Assembly: GCA_051362555.1 (NCBI GenBank)
Contig: CM120649.1
Location: 6,882,001-6,946,000, forward strand
Direction of reading: 5' to 3'
Source of the DNA: Lingula anatina
Taxonomy: Eukaryota; Animalia; Brachiopoda
Length of the DNA stretch: 64,000 nt
Part shown: positions 2,372-64,000 of the stretch, piece by piece
How the letters are laid out: each line of letters begins with the position of its first letter
How positions within the stretch are numbered: position 1 is the first letter of the stretch
The notes under the pieces: generated by a model
Seen by the model: the letters and a program-made list of their open reading frames with translations, nothing else
Told to the model about the DNA's origin: nothing
Database searches by the model: none
Made by a program: the position numbers and the translations under genes

Positions 2372-46255
<43,884 letters not shown>

Positions 46256-49200: not shown

Positions 49201-49627
49201 ACTATCCTGCATCATAGGTCTGTGGTACTTCTTAAAAGAGGTTCATGTGCGGAAAATTCCATATATGCTCTGTAGGCTTATTTTCTGATGACTTTCAATA
49301 TAATTTTATTCTTTGTTGCTAAGATACAGTGTATATCTTATCCATGCCCTGGCCAGAAGAGATGGCCTAGCCTTGAACATGTATATTTAATAGCGGGGCC
49401 TGTCAGAGAGATCAATGTAGATATGTATATTAAGATTAAGTAATCCGTTTCCCCTCGATCGAGTTCTATAAACAAGTGAACTCGGGGGGGAATTTGCTCA
49501 TCGTTGTCATTATTATTCTCATCATGCCCTCTCCCAAAGGTCTTCATTTTTACTAAGCCCCACATATGGATATGTTATATGACAGAAACTGTTATGTGAT
49601 TTGTAAGAAATTACAAATTTGCCTTGA

Positions 49628-49645
49628 AATAAATTACTTATTAAA
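49628..49645 (+). terminator. Likely distal polyadenylation signal of TSC22D (~3.4-kb 3' UTR)
   Basis: AATAAA (49628-49633) plus ATTAAA, followed by a GT/T-rich tract (cttggtgttgattttttttc). Other AATAAA hexamers occur earlier in the UTR. Confidence 0.5.
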
Positions 49646-50028
49646 AATAGCTTGGTGTTGATTTTTTTTCCTTATTGAAAGAATAAGTAAGCAGCAATGG
49701 GTTAACATTTCACATTCAATTTGTTGAGTATTCCTACTTTTACAGATTTTTCTGTTTTATAAAAAGTTCATAAAATATCAGATTTTGTTTGAAATATTTA
49801 GAAATGGTAGATAATGCCAGGAGGAATTAACATCTTTATAAGATACAATTATTACTTTTATATCAATTTCCTAATTGTTTTGAATTTTTTCAGAACTAGA
49901 CTGAGCTAAATAATTTGACCAGAAAATGAATTTATCCAACCTACTAAGTTTCTTTATTAAGAAATTGATGGGAAAGTGCACAAAAAGAGTAAAATTAAAA
50001 AGACAGTAACTTAAACAACTGGAATAAC

Positions 50029-50034
50029 TTTATT
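50029..50034 (-). terminator. Likely polyadenylation signal of MT-like gene A
   Basis: AATAAA on the minus strand followed by a T/GT-rich tract, ~1.1 kb after the stop. Alternatives exist at ~50197 and ~49953. Confidence 0.4.
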
Positions 50035-50935
50035 TCAAGAAATGTTTGGTCCACAAATGAAAAGAAATGTTAACAGTCTTGATCAACATTCAAGATAATT
50101 TTACACAACTTTTGAAAACTAATAATTTGAAATACAAACAATTTTGCTCAACATTCAGGATAACTTCAAATTATAATCTTAATAGAAAAATTACAATTTA
50201 TTATTTTTTTTTTCTACTTGGCAAAATTGGATTATTTGTTGCAAATAATATGATTATATGGGTTCATAATTATGTCCATAAGCAAGTGTAAACAAGAAAA
50301 CTAAAGCTACATGTACTCCTATGTTACATTTTACAGATTATAATTACAAAACTGATTATAATAATTCAATTAACGAAGCGTCTCCATTAATTTTTTGCTT
50401 TTCTATCTAATCAATTTGCTTGGAATGAATTTTTCTTTTCAATCATATATCGGTGGTTGCATAAGCTTTTAAAGTTTGACATACATTTAAGATATGTCAC
50501 ATTTTCAAGAGTAATGATTGACAGTATTGCAAAATTACAAAGTCTCACATTAGTCAATTAATTATCTAGCTACCAACCAATGTTAATCTTTAGTGAATCA
50601 TTTGTCTAAAGAAATAGTTAAACAAGCTTTTGAGTGGCATAAGAATCTGCAAGAACTTGAGGCATCATATTATCCAGTATAACTGATTTTCATATTCTCC
50701 AGTGTAACTGATGGTTATACAAAATTATTATCAGAGTTCAATTAAATCATTGATTTTTCCCCAATCAATGTCCATCTTCAGCAAATCATTTTATCACTCT
50801 AATAGTTCCACAAGCTTTCCAGTATGTAATACTCCATGTAAACTAACTTCAGATATGGTGTGTAAATATCAATAATACTGTTAAAGCTAATATTTGATAC
50901 ATGCAGTATAAAAAAAAAAAACTGCCAAATATCTC

Positions 50936-50967
<32 letters not shown>

Positions 50968-51129
50968 AATTTTTAAATCTCTAAATCACTGTAAATCAGT
51001 AGCAAATCACTTTTCAATCACATTGTTGCACAAGCAATGTAGTCAATACACATAGAACAAAAACCTGCACCATTGTAGTAATGTATAATACCTTTGATGA
51101 GAGATAAAGAACAAGCAGGGCACTAAATC

Positions 51130-53883
51130 TTACTTGCAAACACAGCCCTTGGGTCCAGAGCACTTCTTGCAGCCAACTGGGCACCCCTGGAAAAATATGA
51201 TCATTTTCTCAAAATATGTTGACTACAGAGAAAACTGTTAGAAATCAAAAATTGTGAACATATCTTTGTCAATTTAAATAGGGAATTCAAAGGTTTTTTG
51301 TTTGTTTTTTTTTTGACATATTTTTTTTCTTTATTTTATCTAGTAGGTCACAATGACCCAATACATTACTCACCTCATCAGTGCAGCAGTTGTCGCTAGT
51401 ACACTTACAGCACATACAACCCTTGGGTCCAGAGCATGCTTTACAACCTGCTGAACATCCCTGGAAATATAATTTTTCACATTCAAACATGGTTTTATCA
51501 AAATATTTGAGCAAAAAAAAAATTAATATTCAATCATTAAAATCATATCAACATAAAAAAGAAACTGGCTAATTCTGTGATAATCTAAAGAAATCGAAGA
51601 CATGTTTATAATGAACTAACAATTCCATAGGTGGTTATTTTATTATAAATTGATCACTTTAAATATCAATATCACTTACTTCATCAGTACAGCAGTTGTT
51701 GCTAGTACACTTACAGCACATACAACCCTTGGGTCCAGAGCATGCTTTGCATCCTGCTGAACATCCCTGGAAATATTTTTTGCACAATTAAGCATGGTTT
51801 TATCCAAGATAACGAGCAAAAATGAATAAAAATTCATTAAAATCATATCAGATGTAAATAGAAAGTTACTAATTTGTGAGAATATAATTTTATATAATCA
51901 AAGACTGGTTTTACATGAACCAACAATGTCATAAGGGTTTTGTTTTTTATATACGTTAATTACTTTGATTATCATCAATGTTACTCACCTCATCAGTGCA
52001 GCAGTCATCGCTAGTACACTTACAGCACATACAACCCTTGGGTCCAGAGCATGATTTACAACCTGCTGAACATCCCTGGAGAAATGGCAAAAGATCCACC
52101 ATTATTTTGAAAGGGTAGGTGGTAAATTAATTGCAATAATATAACAAAAAACTTTATCCATCACTCTGGTTCTAATGTTTTTTTTTTAATAATGAAACCA
52201 TAAAAGAAGACAGAGGCAGTCTTTCAAAATTTTCAAGGAGTCATTTTCATTTCTTTCCACTCAAGAAACCGGAAATCATTGATGAACACCAGCAATTTCT
52301 ACAATCACTCACCTTGTCAGTGCAGCAGTCATCGCTAGTACACTTACAGCACATACAACCCTTGGGTCCAGAGCATGCTTTACAACCTGCTGAACATCCC
52401 TGGAAATAAACCAAAAATTTATTTTGAAAAATGGGGAGCCATTAAAAAAATTCAATAAAAAGTAAACTTTCTCAAAAGTTATCATTTTTGGACATTTCTT
52501 TTGAAAATAAAAATATAGCATAAGTCAGAGACTGAATCTTTCATAAAAGCTGTTTTTTATTCTTTTTCTTATTATTTACACTCAGAGGGCTTGACATCAT
52601 TTATAAATGACAACAATTACTAAAATCACTCACCTCATCAGTGCAACAGTTGTCGCTAGTACACTTACAGCACATACAACCCTTGGGTCCAGAGCATGCT
52701 TTACAACCTGCTGAGCATCCCTGGAAAATGGCAAAATATCTTTTTTTTTTGTTTGTTTTTTGTTTTTGTTTTTTGTTTTAGAAAATGTGTATAGGCACTA
52801 AATAATCCAACAAAAGTGTCTCTGTCAAAAGTGATCATTCTGAACATTTCTTCTGAAAATGAAAATATAAACTGAACACAACTAAAAACTCCTTCAATAC
52901 TTGAAAGACACTTTTTCTTGTTATTTTCACTCAAGAATCCTACCATCATTTATAAAAGACAATAAGTTCTACAAAAACTTACTTTGTCAGTACAGCAGTC
53001 ATCACTAGTACACTTACAGCACATACAACCCTTGGGTCCAGAGCATGCTTTGCAACCTGCTGAACATCCCTGGAAATAATGTCAAAAATCTTTATTTTGA
53101 ATAATGGGTGGTCATTAAATAGTCTAACAAAAAGTATATCTGTCCAAATAATTGCCCTTGAACTTATCTTTAGAAAATTAGTATAAAACTGATGAGAGAG
53201 TTCAAATCTTTCAAAAACTTGAAGGTCACTTTTCTTTGTCTTTTTCTTTGCACTCAAGAAATTTGGCATCATTCATAAACAACATTAATAAATAAAATCA
53301 CTCACCTCATCAGTGCAGCAGTCATCGCTAGTACACTTACAGCACATACAACCCTTGGGTCCAGAGCATGCTTTGCAACCTGCTGAACATCCCTGCAAAA
53401 ATGGAAGAAAATAAAATTATTATAAAAAAAGTAGTCATTAAGAAATCCCACAAAATGTATATTTGTCAAAAGTTATCATTTTTGAACATTTCTTTTGAAA
53501 ATAAAAATATGGCAGAAGACAGAGACTTAACATTTCAAAATCTTAAAAAATGCTTTTTCTTTTTCTTATTATTTTCACTAAAGAAGCTTTTCTCATCACC
53601 CATAAATATCAACAATTACTAAAGTCACTCACCTTATCAGTGCAGCAGTTGTCGCTAGTACACTTACAGCACATACAACCCTTGGGTCCAGAGCATGCTT
53701 TACAACCTGCTGAACATCCCTGGAAAAATGGAAAAATATCTTTCTTTTCTTTTTTTTTTCGAAAATTCTTAGCTACTAAATAATCTAAAAAAATTATCTC
53801 TGTCAAAAATTATCATTCTGAACATTTCTTTTAAAAATGAAAAAATGACTAAAAACTAAAAAAAAAACTTGAAAGACCCTTTT

Positions 53884-53932
<49 letters not shown>

Positions 53933-54383
53933 CAAGAATCCTACATTCATTTATAAACACCAACAAAATTCTATAATCACTCACCTTGTCAGTGCAGCAG
54001 TCATCACTAGTACACTTACAGCACATACAACCCTTGGGTCCAGAGCATGCTTTACAACCTGCTGAACATCCCTGGAAATTTTTTTTTTCACAATTAAGCA
54101 AGATTTTATCCAAGGTAATGAGCAAAATCAATAAAAATTCATTAAAATCATATCAGGAGTAAAGAGTAAGTGGCTAATTTGTGAGAATATCTTTTTATAT
54201 AATCAGATTGGTTTAACATGAACTAACAATGTCATGGGTGCTTGTTATATACGTTAATTAGGTACTTTGATTATCATCATTGTTACTCACCTCATCAGTA
54301 CAGCAGTCATCGCTAGTACACTTACAGCACATACAACCCTTGGGTCCAGAGCATGCTTTACAACCAGGATTGGCTTCGGCCAT
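51130..54383 (-). CDS. MT: Multi-domain metallothionein-like protein A (310 aa, 94 Cys), 11 coding exons
   Basis: First coding exon 54383-54291 (MAEANPGCKACSGPKGCMCCKCTSDDCCTDE). Nine 87-nt exons follow: 54071-53985, 53719-53633, 53392-53306, 53069-52983, 52720-52634, 52399-52313, 52075-51989, 51766-51680, 51460-51374 (GCSAGCKACSGPKGCMCCKCTS[DN][DN]CCTD[EK], one A>S). Last exon 51186-51130 (GCPVGCKKCSGPKGCVCK*). All are flanked by AG/GT in phase 0. The protein is ~30% Cys, has no aromatic residues, and the promoter has MREs. Confidence 0.9.
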
Positions 54384-54660
54384 TTTTTTACTCCTACTGA
54401 AACAGAGAAAAATAACAAACAGGAGGTCACAATGAAGGTCAAAAATAAGAAATAAAAGGTTTAATAAAATTAAGTGAGAAATTTCACTAGTTCTTATCTT
54501 ACTAAGACAAAACTTCAACTAATGAATTTTTATTGCTTTCGCACACTATGCTTTAAAGGACAGAATATCCTATGTGTAATTATTACATCCCAGGTAATTC
54601 CAAAACTGGCCAAATTGACCAATTGATTGTATAAGATAGAAACCCGCATGCAATGACTTA

Positions 54661-54879
54661 GGGTGCATTCCCAGAGATTTAGATCGATCCTGAGATTTAG
54701 ATCAACCTAACTCCCTGGGGGTTCACGCTAAATTGCAGTCAGCCGAGCGCGCACCATAGTTAATTACTCCCTTACAGCTTTTAGTAGGCGGGACAGACGC
54801 TTCAGCAGGCTAAGCTGACAGTAATCTAGTGAGACTCCCCACAGGGATAGATCGATCTAAAATCTATAAGAATGGGGTC
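54661..54879 (+). mobile_element. MITE (PIF/Harbinger-like), copy 3, in MT-A intron 1
   Basis: Core homologous to 20385-20599; TTA TSD. Confidence 0.8.
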
Positions 54880-55713
54880 TTAAATGATCCTTCCATATTC
54901 TTGTTTGGTCAAATAGCTTTAAGTACTTGGCTTTTTTCTGGCTTCAACAAAGTGCTCATTAAATTAATATGTTGCCATAGCAACAGAATGTAGAACGTTT
55001 ACTGGTTAATTTTATATTCACAACAGAATGTTGAACGTTTAATTTTATATATACAATTTTTTTTTCGTATTGCCGCACATGCATACATGCCATATGGTAT
55101 CAAGAACGTAATTTGCTGATACCATATATTGCCGAATTATGACATTTTTAAAACAAAAAGTATACAGTCTATCAGTTCTCAGCTCAATTTACAAAAATAC
55201 CGAGCAACAAGAAGTGTGGTTTGTCAACCTATAAGATTATATATCGACACGTACATCGTACAACACTGCATGGATAAATCCACTTAACATTTAAAGTTCC
55301 ACCGTATTTATAAGAAGGAAATACTGGCAATAATTACATTCCATCTTTAGAAGCGTATATCGCATGACCCAGATGTGCATTACACGGGTTGTTGCATTAT
55401 GCAGCACAGCACCGTGACCCGATTAGTTCATGGAGCCAAGGAGGTAATATGCACCGGCTGTGCAGAACGCGGCACGTTTTTCGTTTACAATTTATTGTAT
55501 TCAGGGGAAAATTCCCACATTTCCACGTCGGTCACTGGTCGGTTCGTTGTGGCATTTTTCATTCCGAGAATCCAAATTTAACAGATAAGGTTCGAAAGAG
55601 ATTTCACGGGTCGGTTTGACAACGTGACAACAGGCACGTGTTCTGCTATGTACTCAGTACGGTGACAATTTATCGGATAGCTAGGCCTTCTGGCTTCTCA
55701 TGTTTTCACTTAC

Positions 55714-55770
55714 CTTATAAATTTCTTTTGATTGAGAACTTTGTACGGCGTGCTGCACTTCTTTATCGAC
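55714..55770 (-). other. Non-coding first exon (5' UTR) of MT-like gene A
   Basis: Strong donor AAG|gtaagt at 55714/55713, no ATG in the exon, and a TATA box just upstream. The acceptor of the next exon is at ~54396. The start position is estimated from the TATA box. Confidence 0.7.
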
Positions 55771-55794
55771 CGGTACGAGTAAAGAAATCGTAGA

Positions 55795-55983
55795 TTATAT
55801 ATAGTAATCACGGTGATTTTGCACACGTCGCTTAACTATGGGTGCGTGTTCAGTGTCGGGTGAATGCTGTAGGTCGTATGGGCACATGATGTTGGTTGCT
55901 TTTGCACACAGCACCAGCTCAGTCACAAGGAGATGACCAAATAAGGAAATGTTTTTCGCTTACTTCAGCTAGTAACGGGTGCA
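55795..55983 (-). promoter_or_regulatory. MT-A promoter: TATA box and three metal-response elements
   Basis: TATATATAA on the minus strand at 55803-55795. TGCRCNC MREs at 55820-55826 (tttTGCACACg), 55903-55909 (tttTGCACACa) and 55977-55983 (TGCACCC on minus). Confidence 0.8.
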
Positions 55984-56149
55984 CAATATCGATCGCATAG
56001 CAAATGCTTGGGTAAGTGATGCGGGTCGTTTAAACATATAGCATTAATTCAAGGAGCTACTCTGTGTCATTTCAGTAGCCTATATTTTATATTGATCACA
56101 TAGCATATGATCGCATATACTTGGGTAAGTGATACGGCTCGTTCATTAA

Positions 56150-56487
56150 AGGCATAATAACTCTTTGTATGAGACCTATATTTCACAATAAAAACCTTGT
56201 GAATAACTCATAGAAATATAATATATAATGTTTTACCACAAAAACAGCAGTTATAGCTTTTATTCTGATATTTGAACTTGTCTTTAGACCACGTGACCTC
56301 CATTGATGTCTATACTTTGTTAAAATCTCTTAAGAGATTTTAACAAAAAAAACAAACTTTTTGGAAAAAAACCAGGGACTAACTTTGAATGTAAAAATGG
56401 ATTCATTAACCATTGGTAAGTATGGGAAAATTGTTGTTTACTCCAGGAAAATTCATTTTTTGGCCGAAACGAAGAGTTATTATTGCT
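56150..56487 (+). mobile_element. ~340-bp TTAA-flanked MITE (Kolobok-like), copy 1, upstream of the MT-A promoter
   Basis: TTAA flanks, imperfect TIRs aggcataataactct / agagttattattgct, homologous to 62830-63172 in the opposite orientation. Confidence 0.75.
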
Positions 56488-56913
56488 TTAAGTTTAACGC
56501 AATACCCTTTACAGTGCATGGCAATTGCCTGTGCCATGTCAAAAGACTTGAAATTGATATTGGTGGCATAGCACGTACTTGGGTAAGCGATACGGGTCGT
56601 TTACATATGATTATCTCTTTAACCCCCCAGTCCGTGTCATTTGAATTTTTTTATTATAGTCGACTTCAGATCTTGATAAGATTGAGACTTATTTCTCGTT
56701 ATGATTAAAGTAATAAGACTCAAAAGGAATCCCACGTAGGAGACATAACCCCTTTCTTTGAATTTATGAAAATAGGGAAAGGAGCAAGACTTTTTTACCG
56801 TTAAGATTTGCAATCGTCCAGGCGAAAATAAAACTCAATTACCAGGATATTCAGAGGAGAAAGCAAAATAGTATTGAATGAAATGAATCAGTGCATTATG
56901 TTCTGAATTAAAT

Positions 56914-56919
56914 TTTATT
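56914..56919 (-). terminator. Possible polyadenylation signal of MT-like gene B
   Basis: AATAAA on the minus strand ~0.9 kb after the stop codon. Confidence 0.35.
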
Positions 56920-57385
56920 TTGGCAAATATTTGTTCCACAAAGTCGGACGCGATCAATTTAAATAATATCTGGATTAATTTCAAGTCCTCCTCTCCATGA
57001 AATAATTATGGGTTTTGCTTCTCAATATTAAACCATACAAATATCAAATCCTTAACCAGAAATAAAATGCATTGACTTAATTAGTGTTGCTTTATGCGTC
57101 TAGTAATAGCCGCAATCAATGCCCTAAATTGCCAAACACCCCTGTACATTGTATATCCATTGATTTTCAAACATTGATCTCCAAATATTCAAACATTCTT
57201 TTTTATCAAACAGTTGCATGAAGAACTCATAGTTTATAAGTTGAATAAAGCGTGCGTGTCCGTCTTGATCATCTTCAGAGTAACGGAGTAAAGACGTAAC
57301 TATTCTCTCTCTTCACAGCCTGAAATAGGACCGAAATATATATCAAATTTTGTGTATCATGATCAGTTTGGATTATCTCTCTGTT

Positions 57386-57389
<4 letters not shown>

Positions 57390-57453
<64 letters not shown>
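57390..57453. repeat. (TC)n(AC)n microsatellite in the putative MT-B 3' UTR
   Basis: Directly visible. Confidence 0.9.
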
Positions 57454-57455
<2 letters not shown>

Positions 57456-57806
57456 ACACAAACACACACGATACAGTATCAAATACAGCAGAAAAGCAAA
57501 TTGCACTTAGAGATTCACAATGCCTTTGTCAAAGATACAGAATAAGATATTTCTGCTTAATGTGATCATCTGATACCCTGTTCTCTGAGCTGAACGGTAA
57601 CCCGGTACAAAGGGTGTATTATTTACGTAGTGCTTGCCGCACACGGAGATTAAAACCAAGTAAGCCTTCGATATGCTATATAATCAAAGGGGTGTAGTAT
57701 ATGCACATGAAAGATACGTGTGCAAGTCACATAAGTGGCACCGTTATTGTAAATTATAATAATACCTTTGAGGACAGATAAAAAGCAAGCAGGGTAGCAC
57801 ATGATC

Positions 57807-58025
57807 TTACTTGCAAACACAGCCCTTGGGTCCAGAGCACTTCTTGCAGCCAACTGGACACCCCTGGAAAAATAAATTTTGTTTTAAATTTTAATTGAAG
57901 TATTGTCTTTGATATGCAAGCTGCGAAAGGCCATCATCATCGCTACTATACTATTTTGATTCGAGAATCGTATCAGAAATGAAAATCGTAAACATATCTG
58001 TAATGCTGCCACAGTGCTATCTTGT

Positions 58026-58088
<63 letters not shown>

Positions 58089-61000
58089 AGTGTGCGATCC
58101 CCATGCATTGTGAGAAGACACAAAGCGTGTATATCAATCCTGCCAATTGATCTTAAAATATGTAGTCTTGTTAATCCACATGTAACTATTTATGTAATTA
58201 TGGAGTTCATTTATATGTTCACATCATGTACATTTTCATCAGTACTACCTGATGCCTAAGTATGAAATAAAGCTTATAAGCATATATTGTAATATCTTGG
58301 ATATATAAATTAAAACCTGGGTAAAAGGCTGATGTGCTGTTAAGAACCACTGTCATAGTATTTTTAAATAACCCCGAAGGTGCCTGAATTCACTCACCTC
58401 GGCGGTGCAGCTTTCCTTCCCGGTGCACTTACAGCACACGCAACCCTTGTGGCCAGAGCACAACTTGCAGCCTACTGAACATCCCTGAAAACAAAATGAT
58501 ATCATATATGTTTGTACTGGCGTAATGGCGGTTAATTCATCTAAATCCATGTCTTCGAATTCTGAGGCCAGAGATAAAAATCGTGAAAATGTAACATATG
58601 TCATTATATAAAATGTAACATATCGTGTATGTATGCCATTATATAAGCTGTAAAGCTAAATTCACAACTAACTACTCAGTACTTATTTCACGGAAGACAG
58701 TTTAAGTTCTCAATAAATTCAAATTTAGACGCCTAAAACCACTTTACCTCGGCGGTACAGCAGTCCTTGCCGGTGCACTTACAACACATGCACCCTTTGG
58801 GTCCAGAGCACAACTTACAGCCCGCTGAGCAACCCTAGAAATGAACTGTAAATTAAAGCTCCATTTTGGTAGAATTTTTCACTAATGTGAAGTACGAATA
58901 ATGTAGTACAATCTCGACATGTCATTGACGATATATATTACTATGAGAAAGGTCTTGGCCGTTTTCATTTAGATGACTAAAGTCACTCACTTCGGCGGTG
59001 CAACATCCGTCGCCGGTGCACTTGCAGCACATGCAACCCTTGGGTCCAGAGCACAACTTGCAGCCTACGGAACAACCCTGCAAAATAATGCAGGTTAATC
59101 AGTATTCAAAATGATGTTTAAGCCTTAAAAATAAACGAATGAACATGTTTCTTAATGAAGTAAATCTGTCCTACGGTACAAGTTATTTCATGATCACAAT
59201 TGACCGTATTTTGCTCATGTCAATTTTTTCGCCTGAAATCACTCACCTCGGGGGTGCAGCATCCCTTGCCGGTGCACTTGCAACACAAGCAACCTTTTGG
59301 TCCACAACACAACTTGCAGCCCACTGAACAACCCTGGATGATGGAATTAGAATCAAATTTCAATTCTGCTTAAAACCACGAAAAAGCAATGAGTAACCGA
59401 CACATTAATGTTTTTTTGAAGTTTTTTAATCCGGGAGAAAAATCTACCTGATGGGTAAGATTATCTGTATGAAAAGGTGCCTAAATTCACTTACCTCGGC
59501 TGTGCAACATCCTTTGCCAGTACACTTGCAGCACATGCAACCTTTGGATCCGGAACACAGCTTACAGCCAACTGAACAACCCTTAAAATATAATTAAAAT
59601 ATATTAAAAAATGTCAGTTTTTTTTTTCTGTCAAAGAACGTGACAACTCAAAACAGATTATCATTAACATGTCAGAAACCTATCAAATAACATATATCTG
59701 GCAATGAAAAAAAATATAATCTGGGGTCAAATCTACAGTATATTTCAATAAATGATGTTTTCAATGCCATTTATCACTCAGATTTCTAAAAACACTCACC
59801 TCGGGGGTGCAGCATCCCTTGCCAGTGCATTTGCAGCACATGCAACCCTTTGGTCCACAACACAATTTGCAGCCCACAGAACAACCCTAAAAATAATATT
59901 TATTGATTTTAAGATCCAGTCTGTCAAAACAGTTGATAACTGAATACGTACTAAGTTTTTGATAATGCCAGGGGAGATAAACTTTAGCATTTTTTTTTCG
60001 AAAATTAAGTCAATTATAGCAATTGTATCCAGGGCCGTAGCCTCCGGGGGGGGGGGGGGGCAGGGGGGGCAGCTGCCCCCCCTGGGATTTAGATTTTTCC
60101 ACACTGGTAGGGGGACACCCTCTCCTCCCTCGGGGGCTTCGCCCCCTCGTGTCCGCCTACTGCCCCCCCTGGCATTTTGCTCAGGCTACGGCCCTGGTAT
60201 CTATAAGGCACATAAAATCACTCACCTCGGGGGTGCAGCATCCCTTGCCGGTGCACTTACAACACATGCAACCTTTTGGTCCAGAGCACAACTTGCAGCC
60301 TACCGAGCAACCCTGGTGATAAGATTTGGCAAAAATAAAAGCTTTGGTTTATCAAAATGAGGGTGCTGAATAATGATTTTTAACTGTTCAACGGTAATAG
60401 CTTCTCCTGATCTTGCACGCCATATATATAAAATGGAAAAAGCAAACAAATTTGAAGCTATAATCAAAGTCTAAGTTCCATTTTAATCTTTTCATTGACA
60501 CTTTTTAAAGTCGAAACAGCTTAAATCGCTCACCTCGGGGGTGCAGCATCCCTTGCCAGTGCACTTGCAGCACACACAACCTTTGGGTCCACAGCACAAC
60601 TTGCAGCCAACGGAACATCCCTGGAAAAAGTTAATATTATTTCACTATTTTTCTTGTTAAAACATGAGCGTTAGGAAAATGGTGTTTTTGTTTGAAAATA
60701 AAACGTAAGCAATCTTTCATTTGAATTCGGTAAAATTGAAAAAAAAAAATCCAAAAATGAATTCAAATCACTGATAGTCGGTATAATTTGATTCCAAAAG
60801 GCACTCACCTCGGCGGTACAGCATCCCTTGCCGGTACACTTACAGCACATACAACCCTTGGGTCCAGAGCATAATTTGCAGCCTACCGAGCAACCCTGGA
60901 TAACAAAATATAAATCTACACATTGTCTATGAAGATTGAACAGCGGTAATCTGAAAATTGAGTCTAAAAAATGAAGCAAAATCTTGACAACTACAAGCAT

Positions 61001-64000
61001 TAAAATGTCTGAGACAAGCGATCCAAGCTATGGCTGATATGTAATTTTAGTCAGTCTCGTGAAATCACTCACCTCGGGGGTGCAGCATCCCTTGCCAGTG
61101 CACTTGCAACACATGCACCCTTTTGGTCCACAGCACAACTTGCAGCCCACGGAACATCCCTGTGAGATGGAATTTACCGAATTTAAAATCCAGTCCGTCA
61201 AAGTAAATAATAACAGAACAAGATTTAAAGCACGTTTAATTAATGAGAACTTTTATCATTGTAATGAGACACCCAATACCACTCACCTCAGCGGTGCAGC
61301 ATCCCTTAGACGTACACTTGCAGCACATGCAACCCTTGGGTCCCGAGCACAGCCTGCATCCAACTGAACATCCCTACATATGAAATAAGAATTAAATTAA
61401 ATATTTGATTGTGTAAATTCTACGACCGTGGTATGAAATAAGACATGAAATATCTTCAACTGTTGAAGTACTAGATTTTTGCACAATATCACGGAAATTT
61501 CCAAAATCATCGTTTTTGCAATCAGTTGTTTCGATCTTTTAATTTTTCAATTACCTTATAGGTGCAGCAGTCTTTCCCAGTGTATTTACGAAATGAATTC
61601 AAATCACTGATAGTCGGAATAATTTGATTACAAGGGGCACTCACCTCAGAGGTGCAGCATCCTTTGCCGGTGCACTTGCAGCACATACAACCCTTGGATC
61701 CAGAGCAAAGCTTGCAGCCTACTGAGCAACCCTTAATACAAAATGACCCAAATTAATCGTTTATTTTTCAAATAAGGTGTGCAGTGAAACATTGCCACTA
61801 TCCCTGAACTATCTGTTGCTAAAAGAAAAAAAACTTCTCTGTGATAAAAAAATCAGTACTGTCGGATTCAACGAGCATCGATTATCGTAATTACCAGTTA
61901 CTGATAACAAAGACGGCTTAAATCATTTACCTCGGGGGTGCAACATCCCTTGCCAGTGCACTTGCAACACATACAACCCTTGGGTCCACAACACAGCCTG
62001 CAGCCAACTGAGCAACCCTGGAAATAAAGATTGGTCAAAACGCTACAGAAGTGACATTACTTTACTTAGGCCTATCTAAATGAACGTAATAAATGGACTA
62101 CATAAAGAAAGAAATAAAGAAAAAGAAGAAAATAAAAGAAAAAGAAGCAAGAAAGATTATTTTGAACAATTATTTGACAGTGATAAAAAATGAGGCTAGC
62201 AGTAGAAACAAAGACTACAATAAATTCCAAGATATTTTTGTTACTTTTCATAAAGGTATGGATTCACCCACCTCGGGGGTGCAGCAACCTTTGCCAGTGC
62301 ACTTGCAGCAGCAGCATCCTCCAGGTCCACAACACAGCTTACAGCCCACTGAACAACCCTGGAACGTATTTCGTCGAAATGTGTATTAAAACTGAAGAAC
62401 TAATTAAACTTTAAGAAATATAACACCGAAGAAAGAATGATGACAACCTTTAATTCTTTTGATAAGAATAAAAATATTAAAAAATTACATAAAATTTTCA
62501 ATGTTATTTCTTTCTTTCTTTCTGTTTATTATTATTTATAAATTATTATTATTATTATTATTTACTTATTTATTCCTCACCTCATCGGTGCAGCATCCTT
62601 TGCCAGTGCAAGTACAGCACATACAACCCTTGGGTCCAGAGCACAACTTGCAGCCAACCGAGCAGCCCTGTAAATGAAAAATTAAAATATCACTTTAGAA
62701 TGATAATAATATCGGATAGATAAAAAAACACCAAAGGTTTCTTTGACAATTATACACATACCGGGTAATGACAGAACCTGAATTTTAAAAACTGTGGGCG
62801 ATGTCAACAACGTCTGCTTCTATCTTTAAAGGGATAATAACTCTTCGTTTTGGCCAAAAAATGAATTTTCCTGGAGTAAACAACATTTTCCCCTTACTTA
62901 CCAATGGTTAATTAATCCATTTTTACATTCAAAGTTAGTCCCTGGTTTTTTTTTCTAAAAAGTTTTTTTTTTTTGTTATAATCTCTCTTAAAAGAGATTA
63001 TAACAGAGTATAGCCATCAATGGAGGTCACGTGGTCTTAATACAAGCTCAAATATCAGAATAATAGCTATTACTGCCGTTTTTTTGGTACAACAGAATAT
63101 ATTATATTTCTATGAGTTGTTCAAAATGTTTTATTGTGAAATGTAGATCTCATTCGAAGAGTTATTATCCCTTTAATAAACATTTAGGTGTATGAATTCA
63201 CCCACCTCGGCCGCGCAGCATCCTTTTCGCGCAGCATCCGCGCAGTATCCCTCTTCTTGCTGATACGGGTAAGATATGATGATATAATACCTTACACTCA
63301 ATAACTCCCCATCGATTGATTCAGTTTTAATTATTATCTTTAATTACTGAAAGTGTAAGTCATCTGCTTTACAACATATGGTATATTTAAAATAAATGGA
63401 AAAGCCGAAAAGAAAACCCTGTGATCTTCTCAATCGCACTTAACCAGAATAATTAAAGCAACGGTCAAAATTTGCAAACGATTTGAAGAAACTTCATTTT
63501 CATCATTCTATTTCGATCATTTCATTTTAATCAATCATTGTTTTACAAAATTATCATAATTTTTTGTATGTATTTCTTCATTCACGCAACGCTTGGCATC
63601 ACTCACCGACTCAGTGCAACAGCCTTTGCCCGTGCATTCACACAAGCGCTTACAGCAGCACGCGGCAGTGGGGCAATCGGAACAGCCAGTTTTGCACACC
63701 TATGACATAAGATTTCATTACATCAATTTCCAAATAACATTAATAGCTTGAAAAGGAAAGTTGACAATAATTACAGCGGTTTTTAGAAGAATAGTGTACC
63801 AAGACGCATTAGACATTGTTTATGTTTTAATGTTTTATTTCCTGCGAAGCTACCAATCTTTTCCAATTCAGACCTTAAAGGTGTTAATATACTTAAGTGC
63901 CATTTTCAAAATAATCTGAATAAGCTATCCTGAAAAAGAAAATTCTACAAGTGATTGATTTATAAAAGTAAAGATGAAGCGCTCACCTTGCCCGCTACGG
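57807..64000 (-). CDS. MT: Multi-domain metallothionein-like protein B (at least 484 aa, at least 156 Cys; 5' end outside window)
   Basis: An exon end at 64000-63987 (..VAGK|gtgagc), then 63699-63607 (VCKTGCSDCPTAACCCKRLCECTGKGCCTES). Fifteen 87-nt exons follow: 62667-62581, 62358-62272, 62017-61931, 61731-61645, 61373-61287, 61159-61073, 60895-60809, 60620-60534, 60312-60226, 59886-59800, 59581-59495, 59333-59247, 59077-58991, 58834-58748, 58484-58398 (consensus GCSVGCKLC[SC]GPKGCMCCKCTGKGCCT[PA]E). Last exon 57863-57807 (GCPVGCKKCSGPKGCVCK*). All are AG/GT, phase 0, with no stops. Confidence 0.88.
58029..58085. repeat. (TA)n microsatellite in the last MT-B intron
   Basis: Directly visible. 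Confidence 0.95.
60030..60196. mobile_element. 167-bp GC-rich MITE, CAGG-terminal family, 5-bp TSD, in an MT-B intron
   Basis: Perfect TIRs cagggccgtagcc / ggctacggccctg, flanked by GTATC on both sides. Confidence 0.85.
61555..61589 (-). pseudogene. Truncated remnant of an MT-B repeat exon (3' part: KYTGKDCCTYK|gtaatt)
   Basis: Homologous to the last third of the 87-nt module and retains a donor. The acceptor and 5' part are missing, and it lies only ~55 nt from the preceding donor. Confidence 0.7.
62830..63172 (-). mobile_element. ~340-bp TTAA-flanked MITE (Kolobok-like), copy 2, in an MT-B intron
   Basis: Perfect 18-bp TIRs agggataataactcttcg / cgaagagttattatccct with TTAA on both sides. 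Confidence 0.8.
63206..63259 (-). pseudogene. Degenerate or rearranged MT-B repeat exon (QEEGYCADAARKGCCAAE|gtgggt)
   Basis: The 3' end and donor resemble exon 62272. The interior is a triplicated ~12-bp motif (cgcgcagcatcc). A tatcag acceptor would make an in-frame 54-nt exon. Confidence 0.5.

Follow-up and report, generated by a model that had tools for sequence, protein, structure and literature searches.

Two neighbouring genes on the minus strand of a 64,000-nucleotide stretch of Lingula anatina DNA (the window), here called A and B, are real, under selection and at least partly expressed, and we consider it highly probable that they encode cytosolic multi-domain metallothioneins, with metal binding and induction being predicted properties. 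Both would have been built by repeated duplication of one 87-nt Cys-rich exon. What is new here is the module, the strict exon-per-module design and the length of A, the multi-domain form itself being known.

Exon arrays of genes A and B

Scanning the entire window, in both orientations, for AG, 87 nt with at least 6 Cys and no stop, and GT identified 24 intact module exons in frame 0, all on the minus strand, the remaining rows being offset matches on the same exons (the first exon of gene B included), microsatellites and two unrelated stretches. A DNA profile search of the window recovered 24/24 module exons at E about 1e-20 to 1e-25, together with both last exons, the first coding exon of B, a 93-nt exon of A and one decayed half-module, and gave no further match below E 1; Rfam and tRNA searches returned no matches. 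Every module (24/24) has AG/GT ends and phase 0 and encodes 29 amino acids with 8-11 Cys, the consensus spacing being C-x3-C-x2-C-x5-CxCC-x-C-x4-CC, that is nine Cys with two CC pairs. The last exons of both genes (18 codons, 5 Cys) encode GCPVGCKKCSGPKGCVCK and then TAA. Scan and profile search agree with the preliminary description of this DNA, which had counted 24 intact 87-nt minus-strand exons plus first and last exons, 29-residue modules of 8-11 Cys (true of 24/24), and two genes each closed by the peptide and stop just given; its tally of 10 and at least 16 domains stands for the modules, and each gene additionally ends in a 5-Cys half-module.

Gene B probably begins with a non-coding first exon (55714..55770, minus; 5' end approximate), placed from its sequence, that contains no ATG and ends at a GTAAGT donor; RNA depth in its bin is low in 3/4 runs and its joint is absent among those listed. 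The first coding exon (54291..54383, minus; 93 nt, 31 aa, 8 Cys) has its ATG at 54383, and spliced reads connect its 3' end with a module. Then follows an array of nine 87-nt exons (51374..54071, minus) with RNA joints and introns of 187-265 nt, the scan placing exon starts at 54071, 53719, 53392, 53069, 52720, 52399, 52075, 51766 and 51460, and each module carries Asp/Asn in its second half. Reads continue from the last coding exon (51130..51186, minus; 18 aa, 5 Cys, TAA) past the stop and on into about 0.9 kb of 3' UTR (50200..51129, minus; end approximate), which has an AATAAA at 50202 and in which many reads terminate at 50217-50220 beside an A run. A donor at the stop codon (CAA/GTAAGA) and another in the 3' UTR were rejected, gene B reads passing straight through both. 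The joined product has 310 aa and 94 Cys (30.3%) and lacks F, W and Y. In exon register its Cys layout is 8 + 9x9 + 5, and a half-module shift gives 4 + 10x9 with a complete final unit. The exons are 94% alike, the introns 68-85% alike where alignable, and dN/dS among modules is 0.087 (NG86; 35/36 pairs; dS 0.26).

Gene A extends to the window edge, where the 3' end of a probable upstream exon (63987..64000, minus; VAGK if phase 0, donor GTGAGC) is cut. A possible degenerate phase-0 exon of 54 nt (63206..63259, minus; 18 aa, 3 Cys) has AG/GT flanks and a GCC-x-x-E ending and adjoins a dispersed repeat; both candidates were recognised from sequence alone, and the degenerate one was excluded from the gene A count. 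Scan and profile search support an atypical 93-nt module exon (63607..63699, minus; 31 aa, 10 Cys) and an array of 15 87-nt exons (58398..62667, minus) encoding Lys/Gly-rich modules, with introns of 127-339 nt and exon starts at 62667, 62358, 62017, 61731, 61373, 61159, 60895, 60620, 60312, 59886, 59581, 59333, 59077, 58834 and 58484. The decayed half-module (61556..61589, minus; nhmmer E 0.0026) lies within an intron whose opening 54 nt match the start of a second A intron at 93% identity. All 16 module exons have open frames and canonical splice ends, one of them being an 8-Cys module, and the last coding exon (57807..57863, minus; 18 aa, 5 Cys) ends in TAA. Joined, the product has at least 484 aa, the start codon lying beyond the window, with 156 Cys (32.2%), 52% Cys+Gly, one His and no F, W or Y. 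Among modules 29/29 third codon positions vary, versus 8 first and 10 second positions, and this concentration of variation argues that the array is not a product of chance. The modules have a dN/dS of 0.06 (NG86; 90/105 pairs scorable; dS about 1.1), and the introns are mostly unrelated to one another (2/105 pairs align). Contigs of the DNA run X1, which may be the source sample of the window, run across several exons and introns of A, at 5-12 differences in 530-960 bases.

In eight successive A modules (7-14; 58991-61159) the Cys count switches without exception between 10 and 9 from one module to the next. Likeness is slightly higher among even-spaced than among odd-spaced modules (0.91 vs 0.89), which hints at a two-module unit. 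About 490 nt past the gene A stop we also observe a strong acceptor-like site at 57320 (minus), with almost no RNA depth, which on its sequence could start a non-coding last exon of gene A. A read-through fusion of A to B is unlikely, given the separate promoter of B and the in-frame stops brought in by the first acceptor of B.

Several other features were noted in the neighbourhood. A TSC22/bunched-family gene (15996-46255, plus; 3' end near 49585) converges on the 3' end of gene B, with exons at 16608-16656 and 46055-46255; two further stretches, near 15996-16185 and 22900-23094, are probably alternative first coding exons. A start at the second of these would bypass the exon carrying a 10-residue peptide, and we presume this alternative start to be GILZ-like. 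The SSTVAIDNK signature of this gene is common to 3 named mollusc matches and unlike the vertebrate form (100/120 matches), the list of 120 containing no named invertebrates besides these three molluscs; a search with a variable exon of this gene gave no match. Within a long TSC22 intron lies a tandem array of a 146-bp unit (31066-32328; about 8 copies, 93% match) with TGACCTTTGACC motifs. Short high-copy dispersed repeats, identified by very high contig depth and many unrelated reads, occur at about 54650-54880, 56146-56491, 60040-60200 and 62826-63176, the second and fourth being related and in opposite orientation.

RNA evidence

Reads of seven runs, six RNA and one DNA, were compared with the window. 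Among the 15/151 joints listed, 10 fall exactly at module exon edges and one adjacent to an edge, while the others comprise one 3' UTR deletion and three joints in dispersed repeats. Two of the 10 module-edge joints read CT..AC and so correspond to minus-strand GT..AG introns, and backward-going joints represent joins between modules, mapped to whichever copy fitted best. First mates of the stranded runs X14 and X15 lie almost only on the plus strand over B, and in X15 on the minus strand over the 3' end of the neighbouring gene, which places gene B RNA on the minus strand. All module joints listed come from X17-X19, a single study, and X15 shows none among those listed. Reads of X17-X19 show fixed differences from the window at many positions, some of them in the UTR of the neighbouring gene, and their source is a divergent population, a cryptic species or a paralogue; across 49500-54400 these runs, which are labelled as the same species, show a 204-nt deletion in the 3' UTR and module amino acid changes that spare Cys. 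For a B-like transcript the reads establish splicing from module to module at the sites predicted, and gene A is weakly covered. Of the exon chains that were to be checked against RNA reads, as proposed earlier, B-like joins are seen; no listed joint lies within A, and the joins do not give the order or number of modules, near-identical exons preventing ordering.

This disparity bears directly on how gene A should be read. RNA depth is about 0-1 over the unique bins of A compared with up to 37 over the module bins of B, and a joint inside the A array is absent among the 15/151 listed. Together with the decayed half-module, the 8-Cys module and a start that lies outside the window, these data would fit a situation in which gene B works but A is silent, a pseudogene, or a source of short spliced products, such that the very long protein is never made. 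We judge this unlikely, considering that 16/16 A module exons are open with canonical splice ends, that dN/dS is as low as 0.06, and that A depth, although low, is non-zero in X19 and X17 at 90% likeness, compared with a maximum of 80.5% between A and B modules. An intact gene A that is low in the RNA samples examined, and perhaps inducible or tissue-restricted, is the reading that we retain.

Searches for relatives and Cys spacing

A profile of 26 exons found no match among 1.84 billion representative proteins. Searching the longer proteins of a 5.8-billion set (those of 22-70 aa left out) gave 498 candidates, none at E 0.01, and 597 pattern matches in metagenome contigs yielded none that was confirmed. 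PDB sequences contained no relative (one chance match, E 1.1), and 0/5 module peptides matched any Pfam family in a scan run without a positive control. In a control scaled to the sizes of these databases, single modules reached E values of 1e-7 to 1e-10, a self-match that bounds close relatives only. The HMM search for module relatives proposed in the preliminary description was thus carried through representatives, longer proteins, PDB and metagenome contigs and found no relative, where close ones would score. An AlphaFold model of one module has a pLDDT of 60 and a pTM of 0.18, and Foldseek on this low-confidence model gave no match.

We compared Cys spacing with 21 published patterns from molluscs, chordates and chelicerates, echinoderm, annelid, crustacean, insect and nematode forms being covered by the Pfam scan only. 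Of these, 0/21 match A or B exactly and none scores above shuffled spacings. By group, exact matches number 0/9 for the mollusc alpha, beta1, beta2, beta2-like, beta3, gamma and delta patterns (PMC7826182 Table 1), 0/7 for the chordate patterns (vertebrate alpha/beta, amphioxus 9C/11C, ascidian and appendicularian 12C; PMC8476144) and 0/5 for chelicerate D1a, D1b, D2a, D2b and D3 (PMC13168519). The earlier statement that the spacing is not that of a named mollusc or chordate domain holds accordingly, now with chelicerates included. The nearest pattern is the vertebrate alpha domain, at 0.79 of the maximum, a score that 17% of 60 permutations equal. Module peptide words, short common ones excepted, are missing from PMC7826182 Table S2. 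A description of the module was not found in the literature within reach, subscription journals being mostly outside it.

Probable metallothionein identity

Both products lack aromatics, and Lys/Gly/Ser/Thr spacers separate their CC, CxC and CCC motifs. High Cys in such motifs is the definition of a metallothionein in PMC7826182, and the composition of A and B fits it; absence or scarcity of aromatics is likewise a classical criterion, with known exceptions. The composition first described (about 30% Cys, no aromatics, high Lys/Gly/Ser) is confirmed at 32.2% for A and 30.3% for B, with F, W and Y absent. The dN/dS values of 0.06 and 0.087 indicate purifying selection on the modules of both genes. 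Secretion was checked for gene B, where the N-terminus reads MAEANPGC and has no signal peptide by inspection, and since the inferred first exon has no upstream ATG, we find no secretion signal. An Atlas search with the B first exon ranked a metallothionein cluster highest, at 0.81, which is no more than a weak lead; a second query gave no metallothionein, and all Atlas matches were below 0.9.

Further support comes from the promoter of gene B. Using TGCRCNC, which we take to be the MRE consensus, we found cores at 55977..55983 (TGCACCC, minus), 55903..55909 (TGCACAC, plus) and 55820..55826 (TGCACAC, plus), all three within about 190 bp of a putative TATA box (TATATAA, 55795..55801, minus). 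Three cores in 300 bp occurred in 0/1000 background windows (overlapping, from positions 1-50000) and 8/10000 shuffles, for a region chosen post hoc. The MRE-bearing promoters of the preliminary description are thereby upheld for gene B and not in the plural, B's being the only promoter within the window. Through these elements gene B would be open to MTF-1-type induction. A metallothionein gene of Biomphalaria, however, has similar GTGTGCA sites in a three-MRE cluster and yet is not Cd-inducible (PMC5578137), so MREs do not guarantee induction.

As no homologue emerged from the sequence searches, membership in the metallothionein family rests on composition and context, not on homology. The metallothionein reading made at the outset is supported by composition, motifs, the absence of a signal peptide in B, the MRE cluster, splicing and purifying selection. 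Keratin-associated and cornified-envelope proteins offer a comparison for a different reading, as they work by disulfide cross-linking: A and B might be intracellular structural proteins, cross-linked in this way, and not metal sponges. The 52% Cys+Gly of gene A, the long tandem repeats and the lack of a sequence tie to any metallothionein family all fit such proteins. We nonetheless consider this quite improbable, because the MRE cluster sits at the gene B TATA box, the Cys spacing over 29 residues is rigid despite a dS of about 1, each unit has nine Cys as in M3Cys9 domains, aromatics and Gln are absent, and RNA depth is modest. An assembly artefact as the source of the arrays, or a mere repeat in the DNA that reads as Cys by chance, is already largely refuted and has a negligible chance of being right, for although B exons are 94% alike with related introns, those introns differ by 15-30%, A introns mostly bear no relation (2/105 pairs align), X1 contigs cover several A exons with few differences, variation falls largely at third codon positions, and spliced reads are present.

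If A and B are metallothioneins, their stoichiometry may be estimated by analogy. In Alinda 10d-AbiMT4 each nine-Cys repeat binds three Cd (PMC11645667), and by that comparison each 9-Cys unit of A and B would bind about three Zn or Cd ions, such that M3Cys9 clusters strung like beads would hold about 30 ions in gene B and at least 50 in gene A.

Discussion

Multi-domain metallothioneins are an established class in snails, tunicates, spiders and fungi, with giant examples of 319-399 aa, and it is against these that A and B should be seen. Closest in size is Alinda biplicata 10d-AbiMT4 (nine beta3 domains plus beta1, 319 aa; PMC7084494, PMC11645667), which is like gene B in its length of about 310-320 aa and its ten nine-Cys units, and like the pair in the occurrence of two related long genes. 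However, the Alinda genes are intronless and have beta3/beta1 spacing without CC pairs, whereas A and B devote an exon to each unit, have two CC pairs in it and lack a beta1 cap. Two further marine-invertebrate metallothioneins are similarly very long, repeat-built and about 30% Cys, namely OdiMT2 of Oikopleura dioica (399 aa, 123 Cys, up to seven repeat units; PMC8283569) and BscMT1 of Botryllus (365 aa, 105 Cys, Zn36; PMC8476144), but they use 12-Cys and trimmed units with other spacing. The Biomphalaria glabrata protein (three beta3 domains and a 5-Cys tail, five exons, three MREs; PMC5578137) resembles A and B in being intron-bearing and multi-domain with a 5-Cys terminal piece, and gene B in its three proximal MREs, while it has only three domains, beta3 spacing and a differently spaced tail. 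Short metallothioneins of 46-70 aa are also described in which homomeric 9-Cys repeats contain CC pairs and domain number is set by one-exon splicing, though with spacing that differs from A and B (no exact match). If fully spliced, gene A would encode 484 or more residues with at least 156 Cys and be longer than any metallothionein found in the literature searched; a seven-unit Oikopleura allele comes to about 465 aa by our own arithmetic, which is not a published figure.

The vertebrate alpha domain (CCxCCx3Cx2Cx3[CxC]x4-12Cx1-3CC; PMC8476144 Table 1) shares with the module the order Cx3Cx2C...CxC...C...CC, with 11 Cys as against nine. By eye the last exon agrees with bovine MT1A at 12/18 positions, 7 of them non-Cys, given a two-residue insertion, and phmmer against PDB did not detect this likeness. 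Alignments of Cys-rich proteins can mislead, as PMC8476144 points out, and deuterostome metallothionein coding introns are phase 1 (PMC5412396), compared with phase 0 in A and B. Kinship with the vertebrate alpha domain is therefore a lead suggested by sequence, not a result. We lean, by a modest degree, towards the milder claim that the domain is undescribed and the length a record. Unlikely, in our view, is the full proposal that the 29-residue unit is an undescribed metallothionein domain which shares an ancestor with the vertebrate alpha domain, was kept in an invertebrate and was copied, one exon at a time, until it formed the longest recorded metallothionein (at least 484 aa, at least 50 ions), with frame-neutral exon skipping setting the metal load per molecule.

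The two arrays appear to differ in history. Last exons of A and B differ at 1/57 bases, whereas modules are 72% alike (at most 80.5%), which suggests gene conversion between the last exons; the 3' UTRs were also seen to be alignable for more than 100 nt past the last exons (57700-57863 and 51020-51186). Since A introns are mostly unrelated and B introns 68-85% alike, the A array is likely old and that of B younger or more homogenised, and gene A looks like the older array and gene B like the younger, more uniform one and the main expressed copy. Growth would have proceeded by unequal crossing-over of exon plus intron, with phase-0 ends keeping duplication frame-neutral; such symmetric exons could be gained, lost or skipped without a frameshift, and the decayed half-module in the A intron would be a trace of exon duplication and loss. 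The contrast of Lys/Gly modules in A with Asp/Asn modules in B may mean a different metal preference. The K/N rule (62:0 and 38:6), which would point to divalent metals, was given little weight, as it fails in tunicates.

That automated annotation would miss such genes was anticipated from the start, and the absence of the family from 1.84 billion predicted proteins indicates that gene callers do miss it. The classification of metallothionein domains rests on Cys spacing, with catalogues drawn mainly from molluscs, chordates and chelicerates. A 9-Cys unit of a new kind, with two CC pairs, would be a further, independent instance of elongation and would probably bring a new cluster geometry. 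Moreover, the phase-0 layout of one exon to one module, with the young array next to one that is old and diverged, would provide a record of array growth, and makes both domain boundaries and splice-tuned capacity directly testable.
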